From the IMG/VR virus record IMGVR_UViG_2563366975_000004: a DNA stretch of 35,452 bases. One strand, 5' to 3'. The notes beneath the pieces are model-generated. The model did no database searches, had not been told where the DNA came from, and saw nothing but the letters and a program-made list of their open reading frames with translations. The translations under genes were made by a program, and so were the position numbers. Within the stretch, counting starts at the first letter, position 1. Each line of letters starts with the position of its first letter. Positions 1,422 to 15,347 of the stretch are shown here, in pieces. This stretch comes from a virus (Duplodnaviria > Heunggongvirae > Uroviricota > Caudoviricetes).

Positions 1422-3893
1422 TTAAAAATCAGCCTGATTTGGGATCAGTTTTTGCCAGATAGCTGAAACGTATTTTGCCTGGTAACGGGCGTCATCAAGT
1501 GCATTATGGCGCTCACCTTCGAATGGAATAGCCGTTCTGGCATCGAAGTCTATGGCTTTCCCCAGCTCAACGATTGTGCGTACATCGCGATCGTTGTAGT
1601 AACGCCACGGGCAGGGGATCCCCTGCCGTTCGTATGAACGGCGCAAAATCGTGTTGTCGAAGTTGGCTCCATTTCCCCAAACCTGAACAAAAAATTCACC
1701 GGAGTTTTCGTCGATAAATTCCCGCAATTGTAACAGTGCATCATCTAACGGGATTTCATCGGTCATAATGGCAGATTGCGCTTCGCGTGATTGCTTAAGC
1801 CACCATTTAATGGTGTCCCGATCAATGACTCCGCCAGCAGTTTCCAGATCGATAGTCTTACTAAATTCCGGTCCCATATCTCCGGTTTGCGGATCGAAAA
1901 ATATTGCACCTATTGAGATGATCGGGGCATCAGGATTTTTTCCCATGGTTTCAAGGTCGATCATTAGATGGTCACACGTCCTGCTGGTGGATGTGATAAC
2001 GTGATGACCGTTCACCGTAATTAAGGGATCTGCCGTCTCGCCAGTTTCACTATCGCTGGCGTGGTCCTGAGCGCTGCCAGCATTCTCCTTGTGTGGATGT
2101 TCAGCGCCTTCCATTTTCTCCGAATCGTCTTCCTGAACTTCAACCTGGTTCTTGTCATCGAATGTTTCCTGGTATGTTGCGTCGCCCATCACCGCACCAC
2201 ATTCAGGGCAGTTGCCGCCGCCGGTCTGACCGTAGGCGGTGCAGATTTTTTCCGCTTCCTGTTGCGCTACTGGCTCAGGTTGTTTCGTTTCTGGCTCGTT
2301 TTGTAACGCATTTGGGCTGTTTTGTTCCGCTTTCTGGTCGTTCTGTTCCGTTTCTTGCTGGTTCTGGTTCACAGAATCGCGGGTCTGGTTCCCCTTAACC
2401 CATTTCGGATCATTCGGGTCGCTAATCCCTTCAACAAATTCACCACGTGATACAGCAAGCAACTGATCGGCGTCAGGCTGGCTGATATTGGCTGCCTGCA
2501 TAATTTTGTTTACTTCGTCAGCGGTAACTTTTACTGACCCTGGTTGTGCGGTCGTGTCAGATGCACCAGTATTTTGTTGTGAACCTGAGTATGTACCGTT
2601 TTTGCGGGCGAAATATTCTTCTTTCGTGATTTCAGTAGCCCCAGCAGACAGCGCCTTATCCAGACCAGAAAGTTTGTTTGCGCGACCGTATTTTTCGCCA
2701 TCCTTGTCGGTGAAGAGGAAGTAGAACGGCCCCTCACGCTCTACAGATGGTTCGACTTCCACTTTGCATTCAGTTTTTTCGTTGCCCGGAATTGCCGTTT
2801 CCACTGCATCAGTTTCTGGTACTGGCGACGAGAGAGTATCAGTTGCGCTCTGATTTGTTCCTTCATCTTCAAACACGCCCTTTGTAGTCAGGTATTCAGT
2901 AATGTATTTGTTCAGTGCCACAGGGTCTTTGTGAATGTCGATCGGACGTTCACGGACAAGGCCAAAAATAGTCTGGCGGTCGTAGCGAAGGGCATCAGGC
3001 TGTTTGCGCATTGATGCCGAGATACGCTTCCAGTCTTCGCGGTCGTTGTCGATAACTTCATTTTTTGCCCAGCGATGGATGCTGCCGTCAATGTTTCCGG
3101 CATCCACATCACCAGGCCAGAGAGCGTAGGCCAGTTCGTCATCCAGTGTTTTCCATGTCTGCTTGTATTCGCGATGAATGGCAGCAATGACCGGGTTGAT
3201 TTTTCCTGTTGAATTTTCAGTGTGCTGTTGATTGGCTCTGGCGCGGGCGAGATCAACAACAGACGTGTATTTTCCGGCTTCCTTGCGTTCACCTTCGCGA
3301 CGTTTTTTCCAGATGCGCATCTCTGCCTGAATTTCGGGCCATTTGGCACCAGGCTTACATTTATGCTTAACCCACCCGATGGCATGCAGCTTAAGCTCCG
3401 GATACATGGCGTTAACTTCTGGCATTTTCATCAACGCTTCAACGATATGTCCGTCGAATGTTGCCATGTCTTCCTGCAACAGTTCCTGCGCGCTAATCAC
3501 CATATCAACGGTGATGTTTTCACATGTGTCGAACTTAACCATGACAGCGTTCTGTACTTCAGGGGCCAGCTTGTCAAAAGTGACGTTCATCGGATCTGAT
3601 TCAGTCTCAACCGGGACAAAGGAAGCAGACGCCTCATCCCAGCGGTTTTCCTGCATATATTCAGCATCCCAGGAATCTAGGGCAGGGCGGGGTATACCGG
3701 GTTTATCCTCGCAGACAAGAAATTTATAAGCGCAGTCCTGAGCAGCCGGATAATGTTCCAGGAATTGCCAGTGAAATTTTGCGCGGGCGCGACGTTCATC
3801 ACCGGCTTCAATGGCAGTGGCTACAGCGACGGCACCTTCTTCCTTTATTGCCTGTTCGTCCGGAATGGCGGCGCAAATAAAGACTTTACTCAT
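1422..3893 (-). CDS. Phage exonuclease with C-terminal DnaQ-like (DEDD) 3'-5' exonuclease domain (823 aa)
   Basis: Long ORF; C-terminus contains MIDLETMG...GNGANFD...HNALDDA motifs resembling DEDDh exonucleases; long acidic low-complexity linker; early-left position next to xis/int. Confidence 0.65.
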   Translation of the reverse strand: MSKVFICAAIPDEQAIKEEGAVAVATAIEAGDERRARAKFHWQFLEHYPAAQDCAYKFLVCEDKPGIPRPALDSWDAEYMQENRWDEASASFVPVETESDPMNVTFDKLAPEVQNAVMVKFDTCENITVDMVISAQELLQEDMATFDGHIVEALMKMPEVNAMYPELKLHAIGWVKHKCKPGAKWPEIQAEMRIWKKRREGERKEAGKYTSVVDLARARANQQHTENSTGKINPVIAAIHREYKQTWKTLDDELAYALWPGDVDAGNIDGSIHRWAKNEVIDNDREDWKRISASMRKQPDALRYDRQTIFGLVRERPIDIHKDPVALNKYITEYLTTKGVFEDEGTNQSATDTLSSPVPETDAVETAIPGNEKTECKVEVEPSVEREGPFYFLFTDKDGEKYGRANKLSGLDKALSAGATEITKEEYFARKNGTYSGSQQNTGASDTTAQPGSVKVTADEVNKIMQAANISQPDADQLLAVSRGEFVEGISDPNDPKWVKGNQTRDSVNQNQQETEQNDQKAEQNSPNALQNEPETKQPEPVAQQEAEKICTAYGQTGGGNCPECGAVMGDATYQETFDDKNQVEVQEDDSEKMEGAEHPHKENAGSAQDHASDSETGETADPLITVNGHHVITSTSRTCDHLMIDLETMGKNPDAPIISIGAIFFDPQTGDMGPEFSKTIDLETAGGVIDRDTIKWWLKQSREAQSAIMTDEIPLDDALLQLREFIDENSGEFFVQVWGNGANFDNTILRRSYERQGIPCPWRYYNDRDVRTIVELGKAIDFDARTAIPFEGERHNALDDARYQAKYVSAIWQKLIPNQADF

Positions 3894-4371: not shown

Positions 4372-4929
4372 TCAACAATGAATTTTTAGCAATTGCTCCA
4401 CAGTCATATTTTTAATTGCGCTCCGGTTTACAAGAGTCCATCCTTGTTTCTCCAGATAAAACCGGAAGGTATCCAGGGTGCAGACCATTGCGTCGTCAGG
4501 AACGGTTTCAGTGAATTTGATATTGCCGTGTTCGTCGAGACGGATAACCAGGGTGCGTCCGTCCCCGTGAATCATTTTGTCGGGAGACGGGGCGTTATTC
4601 TGGCGCAGTTCTGCTTCCATGCGGTCGAACTCAGCAATGTATGCCTCTTTAAATGCAGCGGCTTTTTTGCCAGTGAAGCCCATCACCAGGAAAACGAAGC
4701 CGTTTTTGGTGATTTGGTACATTGGGAGTTTGCGCCCGGTTGAGTCGGTGTATTCGCTTGACACAAAATTGTGCTCAGTGAATTTTGCTGAACAGTCCAG
4801 ATTGCGAATTTTATCCAACACTCGTTCGTGGCGTTTGCCAAAGAACTCGGCGATCGCAACAGACGTAGTGACAGCGCGACCATTTTCGATGGTTACGTCA
4901 GGGTGAGAAAGGGTAAGGATAGTAGCCAT
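4372..4929 (-). CDS. Phage regulatory protein Rha family (about 186 aa, start at internal ATG)
   Basis: Rha-domain motif VTTSVAIAEFFGKRHERVLDKIRNL near N-terminus; GGAGG 8 nt upstream of the ATG at 4929; the 284-aa track ORF extends upstream across an intrinsic terminator so I prefer the internal start. Confidence 0.6.
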   Translation of the reverse strand: MATILTLSHPDVTIENGRAVTTSVAIAEFFGKRHERVLDKIRNLDCSAKFTEHNFVSSEYTDSTGRKLPMYQITKNGFVFLVMGFTGKKAAAFKEAYIAEFDRMEAELRQNNAPSPDKMIHGDGRTLVIRLDEHGNIKFTETVPDDAMVCTLDTFRFYLEKQGWTLVNRSAIKNMTVEQLLKIHC

Positions 4930-5096
4930 GATGGCAGCCTCCGCGATGAATTTGATTAACTCACCACCGAGGTTTTCCACGACCATAAGGGTGGTGAGAC
5001 GTACAGGGGTGGAAATACCGGTCATCACGGAACCCGGCCAGCCTTGCGGCTGCCCTGCACGCCCCACCATAATGCGAATGTGGCTGTGCTTAACGC

Positions 5097-5121
5097 ATAA
5101 AAAAACCGCCTGAGCGCGGTT
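5097..5121 (-). terminator. Rho-independent terminator (minus strand)
   Basis: Inverted repeat aaccgc/gcggtt with 6-nt loop followed on the minus strand by a run of 7 T. Confidence 0.5.
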
Positions 5122-5414
5122 ATGCGCCGTGAATGATTTCGGGTTTCCACGCCCGGCACCCGTTTTATGAGGTGCAGGTGCACTATAATTCCACCCGTTC
5201 TGGTTTTCAATAGCTACATTCAACATTTTCTCTACCTTTCATCACCGAAGTGAACTTTGTTGATGCGGTGCCTGGTGCCTCCAGGTGACGTTAACCAGTT
5301 AACAATTAACGTCGGATACAGAGCATTCCCGTTACGCCCGTAAAAGACCGCTTGTTTTAACTGTTCCGCGTGCGCTGAGCCGCATTCACCGCATCACAAA
5401 ATTCACTTTAAAAA

Positions 5415-5467
5415 GGGCGGCAGAGCAGTCACGGAGTAGAACTGATACCGCCAAAAGTCACCAGAAA
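5415..5467 (-). ncRNA. dicF: DicF small RNA (53 nt)
   Basis: Minus-strand sequence TTTCTGGTGACTTTTGGCGGTATCAGTTCTACTCCGTGACTGCTCTGCCGCCC followed by TTTTT; matches my recollection of E. coli DicF apart from about 2 substitutions. Confidence 0.75.
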
Positions 5468-6776: not shown

Positions 6777-6932
6777 TCACTCACCTGAGTTTCTTTCCAG
6801 CCAGCGACGGGCACCATTTTCGGTTTTAAACGTTTTGCTTTTGGTATACGTCATTGCGGTGAACGTACCGTCCTGGTTGGGGAACACGCCACATACCAGA
6901 GATTCGCTGTTGCCAAGATCGATAGTATCCAT
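6777..6932 (-). CDS. YdfA-like small protein (51 aa from internal ATG)
   Basis: MDTIDLGNSESLVCGVFPNQDGTFTAMTYTKSKTFKTENGARRWLERNSGE; GAGG 5 nt upstream of ATG; stop abuts ydfB-like start. Confidence 0.55.
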   Translation of the reverse strand: MDTIDLGNSESLVCGVFPNQDGTFTAMTYTKSKTFKTENGARRWLERNSGE

Positions 6933-7117
6933 GCTGACCTCATTTCCCCTTAACGCCGGGGTAGCGGAACTAAAAAACTGCTGCGCTGTTATATAAAGTG
7001 TTCCCGCCGTCATGTTCATACGCCTCGGGCTGGCTACTTAACCCCTGACCACTGCCGGGTAACTCGAAGTATTGCCTGGCGTTCTGTGGGGCGGGGTGGG
7101 TTGGTATGAAAAGAAGG

Positions 7118-7155
7118 ATACCCATAGGTATTTAAAAAGTAAATACCCATGGGTA
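7118..7155. promoter_or_regulatory. Left-operator-like palindromic sites (2 copies) beside the repressor gene
   Basis: ATACCCATAGGTAT and the perfect palindrome TACCCATGGGTA; share ACC-N-GGTA half-sites with the three sites between repressor and cro-like genes. Confidence 0.45.
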
Positions 7156-7197
7156 AATTTTTGCGGTGTCTTAACTGGTGACTAGTTGTTTGGTGAG

Positions 7198-7617
7198 CTA
7201 TGATGCGTTTTGTGCTTTCTTTTTACGGATTTCTTCGTAGATCATATTGTAATACTGTTTTTTCTCTTCAAGAGTTTTTAATAATTTATCCGCTTCACTT
7301 TCTGGCAGTTCGTCTAAGAGATCTAAAAAAATACGTTGTCGTGGCGTTAGAACCCTTGTTTCATAACTGGAGGCTGTGTTCGTTGATGATGAAACGATAC
7401 CATCCATCCATCCCCGGGGTAACCCAAAGGACTCTTCGATAATCTCCACCATATCATCAGCGATCCGTTTTTTTCCCTTTTTCCCCTCTGGGTACAACAT
7501 TCTTGATACATAAGAAGGCTCGCGCCCGATCTTTCTGGCCACGTTAACCGCTTTACCATCGCATTTCTCATCACGAATTTTGATGAGTTGCTGTCGTCTA
7601 AATTCATATTTGTCCAT
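7198..7617 (-). CDS. Prophage immunity repressor (CI/DicA functional analogue), HTH protein (139 aa)
   Basis: HTH-like segment GKAVNVARKIGREPSYVSRM; divergent from a Cro-like gene with repeated operator sites in the intergenic region. Confidence 0.7.
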   Translation of the reverse strand: MDKYEFRRQQLIKIRDEKCDGKAVNVARKIGREPSYVSRMLYPEGKKGKKRIADDMVEIIEESFGLPRGWMDGIVSSSTNTASSYETRVLTPRQRIFLDLLDELPESEADKLLKTLEEKKQYYNMIYEEIRKKKAQNAS

Positions 7618-7637
7618 AGGTAAATAATAGATGCGAT

Positions 7638-7689
7638 TACCGCAAGGTAAACAACCTGTGGGTATTGACTTTTGTTTACCTGTGGGTAT
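7638..7689. promoter_or_regulatory. Right-operator region: three sites with ACC-N4-GGTA(T) symmetry between repressor and cro-like gene
   Basis: TACCGCAAGGTA (7638..7649), ACCTGTGGGTAT (7654..7665), TACCTGTGGGTAT (7677..7689); followed by AAGGAG RBS and ATG at 7718. Confidence 0.55.
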
Positions 7690-7717
7690 TCTTTGCTGTG
7701 TTTACTAAGGAGTAGCT

Positions 7718-7999
7718 ATGGAAGAATTAAGAATATTTCTCAATTCTCTTTCGTCAGATGAACAGCGTATGTTTGCATGCGAGTGTGGTACCAGCATCGG
7801 TTATCTAAGAAAGGCATTGAGTAAAGGTCAAGTGTTAGGGGCATCGTTATGTGTCCTTATTGAGCGAGCCAGTAATGGTGAAGTTACACGTCAGCAACTA
7901 AGGCCTTTTGATTGGATGAATATTTGGCCCGAGCTGGAAGATACCAAAACGTTAACACAACCACTTTCTAGGAGCTTGATTCATGAAAATCAAGCATGA
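7718..7999 (+). CDS. Cro-like / YdaS-family HTH regulator (93 aa)
   Basis: First gene of rightward operon; HTH-like GTSIGYLRKALSKGQ; resembles YdaS-type Cro analogues of Rac-like prophages. Confidence 0.6.
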   Translation: MEELRIFLNSLSSDEQRMFACECGTSIGYLRKALSKGQVLGASLCVLIERASNGEVTRQQLRPFDWMNIWPELEDTKTLTQPLSRSLIHENQA

Positions 8000-8408
8000 A
8001 CACATCCGCATGGCGATGAATGTCTGGGCGCATCCGGACGGCGAAAAAGTGCCGGCTGCGAAAATTACCAAAGCGTATTTCGAGCTGGGAATGACGTTCC
8101 CGGAACTGTATGACGACAGCCATCCGGAAGCCCTGGCCCGTAATACCCAGAAAATTTTCCGTTGGCTGGATAAAGACACCCCTGATGCTGTTGAAAAAAT
8201 GCAGGCTCTGTTACCGGCGATCGAAAAGGCGATGCCGCCTTTGCTGGTGGCCCGTATGCGCAGCCACAGTTCTGAATATTACCGTGAGATCGTCGAACGG
8301 AGGGATCGGCTGGTGAAGGATGTCGATGATTTTGTTGCGTCAGCGGTTGTTTTGTATGACCAGATGAATCGCGGCGGCCCGGCAGGGAATGCTGTGGTGA
8401 TGCACTAA
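7983..8408 (+). CDS. YdaT-like protein (CII-position regulator), 141 aa
   Basis: Follows and overlaps the YdaS-like gene as ydaS-ydaT pairs do; size about 140 aa. Confidence 0.5.
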   Translation: MKIKHEHIRMAMNVWAHPDGEKVPAAKITKAYFELGMTFPELYDDSHPEALARNTQKIFRWLDKDTPDAVEKMQALLPAIEKAMPPLLVARMRSHSSEYYREIVERRDRLVKDVDDFVASAVVLYDQMNRGGPAGNAVVMH

Positions 8409-10959: not shown

Positions 10960-11705
10960 GCGAAATTAATTACCAGGCACTGCGTGAGGCAGCAGAACGT
11001 GCAATTCCAGCAATGGAACGCCTGTTAATGTTGCCAACTGATGATGATTTGTTAAGTGAACAGGAACTTAAAGATTACGGTGTGGATATTGATGCGCTCA
11101 ATGCCTTCAAATTTCTGACCGGACCAGAAACCGTGCTGGCACTACTGGATGAACGGGAAAGGAACCAGCAATACATCAAACGCCGCGACCAGGAGAACGA
11201 GGATATTGCGCTAACGGTAGGGAAGCTGAGAGTTGAGCTTGAGGAAGTAAAACAACACGCTGAAGAATTATCCGAAACCAAGGCTGTTCGTAACCAATGG
11301 CGGCCAGATATTTGCCCAATAACCGGACGTGCATTTTTCATGTGGATTGAGCATCCAACATTGGGGAATGTGCCGACATATGGTGGCCCATTAGATAGTT
11401 ACACCATTCCAACAAAGGACGGTGACGGTGAGTTTTCATGTGAGCGTTACGATCATGATTTTGGCGGTTGGGTAGAAAGCGAATGTCTTGGGTTATATCT
11501 GATTGATGATAGAGAACAATGCAGGGTCTACGAACTGGAGGAACGCGTTAAGGAACTGGATGCTCGGGAAATATCGCTCCCGGAACGTAGCAGCATGCTT
11601 CATCGAACAGATTTTCACGATGATTACCAAACGGTAATGGCATACAAAGTTTCTGAAGTCATCGCTGCAATCCGCGCCGCTGGCATTCGCATCAAAGGAG
11701 AGTGA
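10956..11705 (+). CDS. ead/Ea22-like protein (249 aa)
   Basis: N-terminal MSEINYQALREAAERA module and overall organisation recalled from Ea22-like prophage proteins. Confidence 0.6.
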   Translation: MSEINYQALREAAERAIPAMERLLMLPTDDDLLSEQELKDYGVDIDALNAFKFLTGPETVLALLDERERNQQYIKRRDQENEDIALTVGKLRVELEEVKQHAEELSETKAVRNQWRPDICPITGRAFFMWIEHPTLGNVPTYGGPLDSYTIPTKDGDGEFSCERYDHDFGGWVESECLGLYLIDDREQCRVYELEERVKELDAREISLPERSSMLHRTDFHDDYQTVMAYKVSEVIAAIRAAGIRIKGE

Positions 11706-14574: not shown

Positions 14575-14745
14575 GCGGGTGCTTGAGGCTATCTGTCTCA
14601 GGCATGAACACCAAAAGGCAGATAGAGAAAAGCCCCAGTTAACATTACGCGTCCTGCAAGACGCTTAACATTAATCTGAGGCCATATCTATGCGACACAT
14701 AGAGATTAGCCTCTTACGGACCGAAAGGTCAAGGAGAAGCAGGCT
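14575..14745 (+). promoter_or_regulatory. hok mRNA leader with mok-like upstream reading frame
   Basis: Leader segments gcttgaggctatctgtctcagg and tagcctcttacgg...caaggagaagcaggctATG resemble the recalled R1 hok/sok leader. Confidence 0.45.
14630..14700 (-). ncRNA. Expected Sok-like antisense RNA (position approximate)
   Basis: Inferred from hok/sok locus architecture only; antisense to the mok start region; no independent sequence signature identified. Confidence 0.25.
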
Positions 14746-14901
14746 ATGAAGCAGCAAAAGGCGATGTTAATCGCCCTGATCGTCATCTGTTTAACCGTCA
14801 TAGTGACGGCACTGGTAACGAGGAAAGACCTCTGCGAGGTACGAATCCGAACCGGCCAGACGGAGGTCGCTGTCTTCACAGCTTACGAACCTGAGGAGTA
14901 A
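14746..14901 (+). CDS. hok: Hok/Gef-family type I toxin (51 aa; not in ORF track)
   Basis: MKQQKAMLIALIVICLTVIVTALVTRKDLCEVRIRTGQTEVAVFTAYEPEE closely matches the Hok/Gef consensus as I recall it; AAGGAG RBS. Confidence 0.8.
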   Translation: MKQQKAMLIALIVICLTVIVTALVTRKDLCEVRIRTGQTEVAVFTAYEPEE

Positions 14902-15068: not shown

Positions 15069-15347
15069 ATGGCGCACGATACCAAATTTTACAATTCGGA
15101 TAACTCTGCCGCCCCTGCCAGCAGGCACGGGCGGCGTTCCCGCACTTTCAAATCTGACTGGTTCCAGCATCCCCCATGCACTGAAGAACAGGCCGAGTGG
15201 CTAATTCAGTGCTACCGCAGACACGGATACGAGATTAAGAAAGCCCTCAGCCTCGATTATCGTCACTGGATAATCTCCGTCAGGCTTCCTTACTCCGAAC
15301 GACCACCGCGTCCGTCCCGCACATTCCAGCAACGCATCTGGAGGTAA
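15069..15347 (+). CDS. Hypothetical protein (about 92 aa from internal ATG)
   Basis: Only the C-terminal part of track ORF 14940..15347 is plausible because its N-terminus runs through the hok terminator; weak RBS. Confidence 0.3.
   Translation: MAHDTKFYNSDNSAAPASRHGRRSRTFKSDWFQHPPCTEEQAEWLIQCYRRHGYEIKKALSLDYRHWIISVRLPYSERPPRPSRTFQQRIWR

Follow-up and report, generated by a model that had tools for sequence, protein, structure and literature searches.

The repressor gene of a Qin-like Escherichia coli prophage, integrated beside ompW, is flanked on both sides by short dyads of the form ACC-N4-GGTA, five in total, which we read as the operators of a lambda-type bistable switch, at a probability of about 0.88 and on the strength of sequence comparison. 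The prophage is represented by a 35,452-nucleotide (nt) stretch of viral DNA (Caudoviricetes; IMG/VR record IMGVR_UViG_2563366975_000004), hereafter referred to as the window. The dyads cluster between positions 7118 and 7689, are interlocked with the predicted promoters of the repressor gene, of a divergent cro-like gene and of a leftward operon carrying DicF and dicB, and recur at fixed offsets from the start codons of homologous repressor genes.

Proposed operator dyads and the predicted promoters around them

Three spaced sites between the repressor and cro-like genes, together with two further palindromes beyond the 3′ end of the repressor gene, one of them perfect, had been proposed in a sequence-only reading of this interval on account of the half-sites common to both sides of the repressor gene. 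All five could be located, with the three right operator (OR) sites starting at 7638, 7653 and 7677 and the two left operator (OL) sites at 7119 and 7144; all conform to ACC-N4-GGTA and are bracketed by the interval 7118-7689. They are found among the following features, where PR and PL denote the predicted rightward and leftward promoters and PRM the predicted promoter of the repressor gene:

7119-7130: OL1, TACCCATAGGTA, left of the repressor 3′ end, between the PL -35 and -10 hexamers, with its GGTA half over the -10
7144-7155: OL2, TACCCATGGGTA, a perfect 12-bp palindrome abutting the PL -35 on its upstream side
7638-7649: OR3, TACCGCAAGGTA, centred at -26.5 from the repressor ATG, overlapping the PRM -35 and spacer
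7653-7664: OR2, AACCTGTGGGTA (AACC-TGTG-GGTA), centred at -41.5 from the repressor ATG, abutting the PR -35 and the PRM -35, one on each side
7677-7688: OR1, TACCTGTGGGTA, centred at about -65.5 from the repressor start, in the PR spacer and over the PR -10
7198-7617, minus strand: repressor gene, 139 amino acids, in which a disordered linker (77-87) joins an N-terminal helix-turn-helix (HTH) domain (residues 1-75) to a helical, DicA-like C-terminal domain (about 89-138)
7718-7999, plus strand: cro-like gene, 93 amino acids, YdaS-like, phrog_35
7665-7692, plus strand: predicted PR (promoter scan), with -35 TTGACT (7665-7670), a 16-nt spacer, -10 TATTCT (7687-7692) and a start at about 7699
7651-7624, minus strand: predicted PRM-like promoter, with -35 TTTACC (7651-7646), a 16-nt spacer and -10 TATTAT (7629-7624), matching the consensus at 9/12 positions
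7143-7115, minus strand: predicted PL-like promoter (dicBp equivalent), with -35 TTTACT (7143-7138), a 17-nt spacer, -10 TATCCT (7120-7115) and a start at about 7108

The centres of OL1 and OL2 are 25 bp apart, while the OR3-OR2 and OR2-OR1 spacings are 15 and 24 bp, respectively. Exact copies of TACC-N4-GGTA occur five times in the 35.4-kb window, against 0.27 expected, a count reached by none of 100 shuffled sequences, and four of the five (starting at 7119, 7144, 7638 and 7677) fall within the 570-bp interval. The looser ACC-N4-GGTA yields 12 strand-matches in the window (2.8 expected), nine of which are located inside 7118-7689. The centre of OR3 departs from the pyrimidine-purine alternation observed in the other sites. 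Two further candidates were set aside. A candidate for a fourth OR site (TGTCCATAGGTA, 7611-7622), spanning the start codon of the repressor gene, was rejected, since its left half is degenerate and the site is not kept in related loci, and the fifth exact copy, TACCAAACGGTA at 11625-11636, is isolated in the coding region of an ead/Ea22-like gene region and was treated as probably due to chance.

The repressor and cro-like genes are divergent and separated by a gap of 100 bp. A promoter scan of positions 6900-7800 called exactly two sigma-70-like promoters, PR and PRM, both of which are interlocked with the sites, the PRM -35 lying inside OR3 and its flank. An AAGGAG Shine-Dalgarno sequence (7707-7712) precedes the ATG of the cro-like gene. 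The PRM -10, by comparison, ends 6 nt before the repressor ATG and no Shine-Dalgarno sequence is present, a spacing that is conserved in the family; the repressor mRNA probably starts at the A of its ATG (7617) and would be leaderless. The PL region repeats the design of PR as a near copy (GGGTATTTACT...TACCTATGGGTATCCT versus GGGTATTGACT...TACCTGTGGGTATTCT), and PL is predicted to drive the DUF1391/ydfA-like, ydfC, DicF and dicB genes.

Conservation of the motif and its association with the repressor domain

Conservation of the motif in homologous immunity regions had been named as a check on the original proposal, and it proved to be strong. The comparison set comprised 45 loci encoding relatives of the repressor N-terminal domain, namely 42 genomic loci, the phages mEp043 and CharmingMan, and the window itself; 13 of the N-terminal domains were aligned. 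The genomic loci derive from Enterobacterales, Aeromonas, Neisseria, Burkholderiales, Nitrosomonadales and Xanthomonadales, with genera including Edwardsiella, Klebsiella, Pantoea, Yersinia, Aeromonas, Neisseria, Paraburkholderia, Ferrovum and Xanthomonas. In most loci, ACC-N4-GGT starts at -72, -47 and -32 from the repressor ATG (-70, -46 and -31 in the window), and the 100 nt upstream of this ATG align gap-free across the related loci. The common OR plan reads TTACC-N4-GGTAA, N9, TCAATACC-N4-GGTTATTTACC-N4-GGTAA, N10, TAnAAT, N6-7, ATG. The TACC and GGTA bases of each site do not vary in 36-39 loci, in contrast to the central N4 and the spacers. The central four bases alternate between pyrimidine and purine at OR1 and OR2 in the related loci and are looser at OR3. 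The promoter elements are retained with the sites: the PR -35, read as TCAATACC on the repressor strand, is nearly invariant, and TAnAAT at 6-7 nt before the repressor ATG, with no Shine-Dalgarno sequence, is conserved across the related loci. Furthermore, a Cro homologue is found beside the motif in 35 fetched loci, 34 of them independent (L001 is this same prophage), with the divergent layout kept.

The OR windows of these loci, 2.7 kb in total, contain 87 copies of the motif (31.7 per kb), compared to 0.16 per kb in 226 kb of flanking sequence, an enrichment of approximately 200-fold. Next to no credence can be given to the palindromes being a product of chance or base composition, or the sites of an unrelated system such as restriction-modification, with no role in prophage regulation. 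Dyads specified at six bases do arise by chance at about 0.16-0.24 per kb, and an isolated extra copy exists in a coding region at 11625. However, four exact 12-mers in 570 bp stand against 0.27 expected for the whole window, and the positional enrichment at fixed offsets, seen across three proteobacterial classes, effectively refutes a chance origin.

An OL-type pair, with sites 25-26 bp apart, is located 3′ of the repressor gene or operon in 31 of the 45 loci, at 44-1838 bp from the repressor stop codon. Without exception, a -35 hexamer (GGTATTGAC) lies between the two sites and abuts the first, while the -10 lies over the second, and the arrangement 'GGTATTGAC...TACC-N4-GGTAtAnT' is conserved in the related loci. 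In mEp043 (L002), a TTACC-N14-GGTAA sequence with the same half-sites, but one helical turn wider, is present at 3553-3578, approximately 40 bp upstream of the OL pair; it may represent a third, split OL site and is not found in the window.

Alternatively, the left pair (7119-7155) could function mainly as an intrinsic terminator of the repressor transcript rather than as an operator, which we consider unlikely. On the minus strand, a 16-pair stem (7155-7119) is followed by TCCTTCTTTT, at 43 nt past the repressor stop codon, and the 111-nt region has a minimum free energy of -23.4 kcal/mol, to which that hairpin contributes the most (z = -5.1). However, such a hairpin is an automatic by-product, since adjacent copies of one palindrome are mutual inverted repeats, and the stem contains only five G-C pairs and precedes an interrupted T run. 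In the 31 related loci the pair is always placed around the promoter hexamers, wherever it is located relative to the stop codon, and usually lacks a T run, while mEp043 carries a separate GC-rich terminator upstream of OL. Furthermore, the motif in the left pair is identical to that of the OR sites. Alongside its role as an operator, the OL hairpin could serve as a secondary terminator of PRM transcripts in this prophage.

The motif varies, and is retained, together with the DNA-binding domain of the repressor. The CI protein of phage Tritos shares 39.5% amino acid identity with the repressor over residues 21-139 and has the same C-terminal domain, while its HTH residues are different; its sites, G(T/A)AC-N5-GTAC at both OR and OL, have the same layout. 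The same layout is also observed for the Qin DicA palindrome, TTGTTAG...CTAACAA, and DicA shares only its C-terminal domain with the repressor. In two Advenella homologues (L042 and L046), which are the most divergent of the family, the recognition helix PSYVSRM is altered to PASISHM or PATISHL, and the upstream palindrome is changed alongside it to ATACCGC-N8-GCGGTAT or a related form. Judged from sequence, Advenella is thus a natural specificity switch within the repressor family. Five Klebsiella loci and the loci of Izhakiella and Orbus contain no Cro homologue but still encode the repressor domain and keep the sites, OL pairs among them, indicating that the motif follows the repressor domain.

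These comparisons also bear on whether the dyads might be read by the Cro-like (YdaS-like) protein only, with the 139-amino acid protein binding elsewhere or not binding DNA at all, an explanation to which we attach only a slim chance. Cro homologues accompany the motif in the 34 independent loci, such that comparison alone cannot fully separate the two proteins. However, the sites persist with the repressor domain in Klebsiella, Izhakiella and Orbus, their fixed distance is to the repressor ATG, an altered repressor recognition helix accompanies the altered palindrome in Advenella, and the repressor has a confidently modelled HTH fold. To our knowledge, operators are common to the repressor and Cro in every lambdoid switch that has been studied. 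In a YdaS-type switch, the repressor and Cro likewise share operators (PMC8630535).

The five Klebsiella loci (L006, L009, L010, L012 and L013, at approximately 2400-2500) encode 233-amino acid S24-type homologues. In place of OR2 they carry TTTGCTATATTTT, whereas OR1, the downstream pair and some or all of OR3 are retained; neither a Cro homologue nor an obvious divergent gene is present. They may represent a different kind of element which uses the same repressor and operator.

Prophages and phages that are nearly identical to the window on either side diverge from it exactly between about 7108 and 7971, which delimits an exchangeable unit:

7109-7970 (approximately): immunity cassette, comprising OL, the repressor gene, OR and cro, bounded by sequence that also occurs in prophages and phages belonging to other immunity types

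Phage matches to this part of the window cover positions 7002-7108 and 7971-8404 only, and alignment with Tritos and Qin agrees on the cassette bounds. The cassette is found in 824 of 5426 complete E. coli genomes, and in most of the compared loci the cro-like gene is inherited with the repressor DNA-binding domain. The earlier proposal that the sites define the immunity specificity of the prophage is borne out at the level of comparison, in that the motif follows the DNA-binding domain and the exchanged block holds exactly OL, the repressor gene, OR and cro.

The repressor protein and the proposed switch

The 139-amino acid protein carries the RefSeq label 'hypothetical protein' and has no Pfam match, with no HTH family recovered in Pfam at E < 0.01. 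Sequence searches of Pfam, NCBIfam and PDB similarly returned no HTH family and only a partial match to the C-terminus of DicA, and the S24 peptidase domain (PF00717) was not matched in Pfam. Residues 86-136 match the DicA model NF007257 at 24.5 bits, against a cutoff of 101, and BLASTP alignment with DicA is restricted to the C-terminal 46 amino acids (33% identity; e-value: 2e-7). The features of full-length DicA family members, an HTH_3 domain and TTGTTAG-type operators, are absent. The N-terminal residues 1-86, by comparison, share 65% identity with the N-terminus of mEp043 cI. This DNA-binding domain is present in hundreds of database proteins, where it is joined to an S24 (LexA-like) peptidase, to DicA-like tails or to other C-termini, with many of the homologues carrying PF00717.

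In the AlphaFold model of the repressor (predicted local distance difference test: 87; N-terminal domain blocks: > 90), helices are placed at residues 3-18, 23-30, 34-40 and 54-63, the HTH spans residues 23-40, and residues 92-138, beyond the disordered linker (77-87), form a helical hairpin. The top Foldseek match is Rep, the non-cleavable repressor of Salmonella phage SPC32H, in the Rep-Ant complex (5d50; e-value: 8e-4); C.Esp1396I-type controllers, HigA and the lambda repressor are also matched. The N-terminal domain matches C.Esp1396I, C.BclI, NHTF and the lambda repressor (1lli) with a probability of 0.92-1.0 and a root-mean-square deviation of 2.1-3.7 Å over 66-73 residues. The modelled N-terminal domain is of the Xre/Cro-C1 HTH type, with a lambda repressor-like fold, and this membership holds at the fold level only, because no HTH family is matched in Pfam. 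The protein is chimeric in make-up, with a cI-type HTH domain fused to a DicA-like C-terminus which lacks an S24 peptidase.

In the proposed switch, dimers of the repressor would bind the TACC/GGTA half-sites through this HTH, with EPSYVSRML as the putative recognition helix. Occupation of OR1 and OR2 would block the -35 and -10 of PR and silence the cro-like, ydaT-like and replication genes, while occupation of OL1 and OL2 would block the leftward promoter and silence the ydfA/ydfC/DicF/dicB operon. OR2, situated some 41.5 bp upstream of the repressor start and beside the weak -35 of PRM, could activate PRM; it is from this position that lambda CI activates PRM. OR3 lies over the PRM -35, and would switch off the repressor gene at high repressor levels or when bound by the Cro-like protein, of which it is the likely target. 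As regards the order of occupancy, OR3 is probably the weakest of the sites, since its centre lacks the pyrimidine-purine alternation.

As the repressor has a DicA-like C-terminal domain in place of an S24 autoprotease, derepression would probably occur through an antirepressor or stochastic switching, and not through RecA-stimulated cleavage. In the case of DicA, relief comes from the antirepressor Rem, and its stochastic switching does not depend on RecA (PMC10448788). Two genes in the window are candidate antirepressors:

15069-15347, plus strand: 92-amino acid open reading frame (ORF; phrog_1212; no Pfam match) between hokD and a DUF968/ydfU-like gene, which is the position of rem in Qin
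4372-5226, minus strand: ORF annotated as a 284-amino acid 'Rha family' protein, with a C4 antisense RNA (4987-5074) and isrK (5099-5175) inside its 5′ part (Rfam)

The Rha-family gene probably really starts at 4929, giving a 185-amino acid product with a Phage_pRha domain and matches to anti-repressor PHROGs, and it is this Rha/Ant-like gene (4372-4929) that is put forward as the candidate. Preceded by isrK and C4 RNAs, it resembles the antirepressor modules of P1 (immI) and Gifsy-1 (isrK-anrP).

Several points weigh against the switch as proposed above. The centres of OR2 and OR3 are 15 bp, or about 1.5 helical turns, apart, and lambda-style pairwise cooperativity can therefore not simply be assumed. 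PL matches the sigma-70 consensus at 8/12 positions, which is below the threshold of the scanner, and was not called. On the repressor strand, the two OL sites also pair with each other as RNA, over 16 bp and ahead of a T-rich run, and may have a second role. Because the Cro-like protein and the repressor domain are passed on together in most loci, the comparative data are silent on which protein reads which site and with what preference. The antirepressor route is a conjecture. The 92-amino acid ORF, although located where Qin carries rem, bears no detectable resemblance to Rem, and no exact LexA box (CTGT-N8-ACAG) is present in the window; boxes with one mismatch number 18, against 11.2 expected (3 of 100 shuffled sequences reach 18), which is barely above chance and thus gives no support to an antirepressor under SOS control in the window. 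Finally, no published binding, footprinting, reporter or transcript-start work was found in the open-access literature for the repressor or its DNA-binding-domain family.

Prophage context and relation to known switches

The window is 100% identical to E. coli chromosomal sequence, for example in strain Ecol_316, and 99.5% identical to the ST131 strains EC958 and JJ1886. To the left of the repressor gene, the DUF1391 (ydfA-like) gene, ydfC, the DicF RNA and dicB follow in the same order as downstream of dicA in the Qin prophage of K-12. Additional features flanking the switch are as follows:

7983-8408, plus strand: YdaT-family (CII-equivalent) gene, 141 amino acids (PF06254; 40.9 bits; cutoff: 21)
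7976-7993: YdaT operator TTGATTCATGAAAATCAA, an exact match to TTGATT-N6-AATCAA at the cro/ydaT junction, overlapping the ydaT ATG, just outside the right edge of the immunity cassette
5415-5466, minus strand: gene for the small RNA (sRNA) DicF (71.5 bits), preceding dicB within the operon that OL/PL is predicted to control, an arrangement as in Qin

TTGATT-N6-AATCAA is the footprinted YdaT operator of CP-933P, where it is found in the same place at the end of the cro-like gene (PMC9986795). The cro-like protein matches the Pfam YdaS family (PF15943) at 25.8 bits (e-value: 9e-6), below the gathering score of 30, and phrog_35, annotated as 'transcriptional repressor', with an e-value of 4.8e-23. 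Elsewhere in the window, a pair of tRNA genes, the STnc100 sRNA in two copies and the sok antisense RNA of hokD are located at 19277-19433, 19700-19893, 20169-20357 and 14577-14748.

As in lambda, divergent repressor and cro genes are separated by approximately 100 bp, three dyads are interleaved with PR and PRM, and a second operator cluster covers the leftward early promoter just past the repressor gene, all within an exchangeable immunity cassette. The centres of lambda OR1 and OR2 lie at about -66 and -42 from the repressor start, compared to about -65.5 and -41.5 here. The weak PRM -35 is another common feature, as is the predicted leaderless repressor mRNA, the lambda cI mRNA being leaderless. 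The lambda OR/OL logic proposed in the sequence-only reading therefore stands as regards the layout of sites and promoters and the presence of an OL pair. It does not extend to the number of OL sites (two rather than three), the OR2-OR3 distance (15 rather than 23 bp) or the repressor, which has no RecA-cleavable S24 autocleavage domain. The operator is furthermore a 12-14 bp TACC-N4-GGTA dyad, whereas the lambda site measures 17 bp, some 0.5 kb separates OL from OR instead of 2.4 kb, Cro is YdaS-like, the CII equivalent is YdaT, and there is no N gene beside PL.

The DicA/DicC system of Qin is identical in the gene order cro-like, repressor, ydfA (DUF1391), ydfC, DicF and dicB. The two systems have a homologous repressor C-terminus, a short repressor with no Ala-Gly cleavage site, and operators at the divergent promoter as well as at the counterpart of dicBp; DicA represses dicCp and dicBp through operators (PMC10448788). 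However, the DNA-binding domains are unrelated in sequence, the Qin operators are of the TTGTTAG...CTAACAA type, the Qin Cro is DicC, and no Rem homologue was found at the equivalent position in the window.

The nearest relative of the switch is the immunity region of the lambdoid coliphage mEp043. Among sequenced phages, the closest relatives of the DNA-binding domain are found in mEp043 and CharmingMan. In mEp043, TACC-N4-GGTA occurs at -71, -46 and -31, the sites of the OL pair are 25 bp apart and Cro is 73% identical, and this phage and the prophage probably have the same immunity specificity. The mEp043 cI protein, unlike the repressor described here, consists of 228 amino acids and includes an S24 peptidase domain, and is thus presumably SOS-cleavable; mEp043 also differs in that its cII is of the lambda type and its OL is followed by an N gene.

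A YdaS-like Cro and YdaT are shared with the PaaR2/YdaS/YdaT system of CP-933P, a cryptic prophage of E. coli O157:H7, and the RacR/YdaS/YdaT system of Rac, as is an exact YdaT operator at the ydaS/ydaT junction. For CP-933P PaaR2/YdaS, operators of both the OR and the OL kind are reported as well, together with a leaderless paaR2 repressor gene (PMC8630535). However, the CP-933P operator is an 18-bp palindrome with the half-site consensus GTTTAGTAA, the repressor family differs, and the paaA2-parE2 toxin-antitoxin genes are not found behind the repressor gene here. PaaR2 operators were considered as a match for the present sites and rejected, their consensus GTTTAGTAA being distinct from TACC-N4-GGTA.

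With the antirepressor-controlled repressors, namely Gifsy GfoR/GftR, SPC32H Rep-Ant and DicA-Rem, the repressor has in common a short length, an HTH joined to a helical oligomerisation domain, the lack of an S24 domain, and a Rha/Ant-like gene with isrK and C4 RNAs in the same prophage. SPC32H Rep, although the best structural match in Foldseek, shows low sequence similarity to it (16-23%). In its working, the switch resembles lambda OR/OL, and more closely still Qin DicA/DicC-dicBp and CP-933P PaaR2/YdaS/YdaT, while its DNA-binding domain and operator place it outside the DicA and PaaR2 repressor families.

Novelty and significance for the prophage family

No publication on the TACC-N4-GGTA operator motif, the DNA-binding domain or the mEp043 operators was found in the open-access literature, where matches to the motif were limited to papillomavirus E2 and LysR papers or incidental mentions. 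Loci from E. coli to Neisseria and Xanthomonas share this operator code, which is apparently new to the literature. The system is an ordinary genetic switch and a clean new instance of the lambdoid paradigm, and overturns nothing in current understanding. It does provide a probable function and DNA code for a 'hypothetical protein' gene carried by 824 of the 5426 complete E. coli genomes, those of the pandemic ST131 lineage among them, and delineates an immunity group in which the repressor domain, Cro and operators travel together. The group extends over no fewer than three gammaproteobacterial and three betaproteobacterial orders. Coordinates of promoters and operators are furthermore made available for a switch which matters because it would control the toxic cell-division inhibitors encoded by dicF and dicB.

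The occurrence of one DNA-binding module on either an SOS-cleavable or a non-cleavable C-terminus represents a natural experiment, in which the induction pathway is swapped and the immunity specificity remains unchanged. More tentatively, and with less than even odds in our estimation, the TACC-N4-GGTA code and the SYVSRM helix may define a single immunity group in the prophages of Gamma- and Betaproteobacteria, with interchangeable C-terminal 'sensor' domains (S24 autoprotease, DicA-like and others). If this is true, the uncleavable DicA-type repressor, which 15% of complete E. coli genomes carry, ST131 among them, would confer SOS-proof superimmunity to every S24-type phage of the group, such as mEp043, and could also keep co-resident inducible prophages of the same group silent during DNA damage. 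The domesticated repressor would then represent a broad anti-phage and anti-induction factor.

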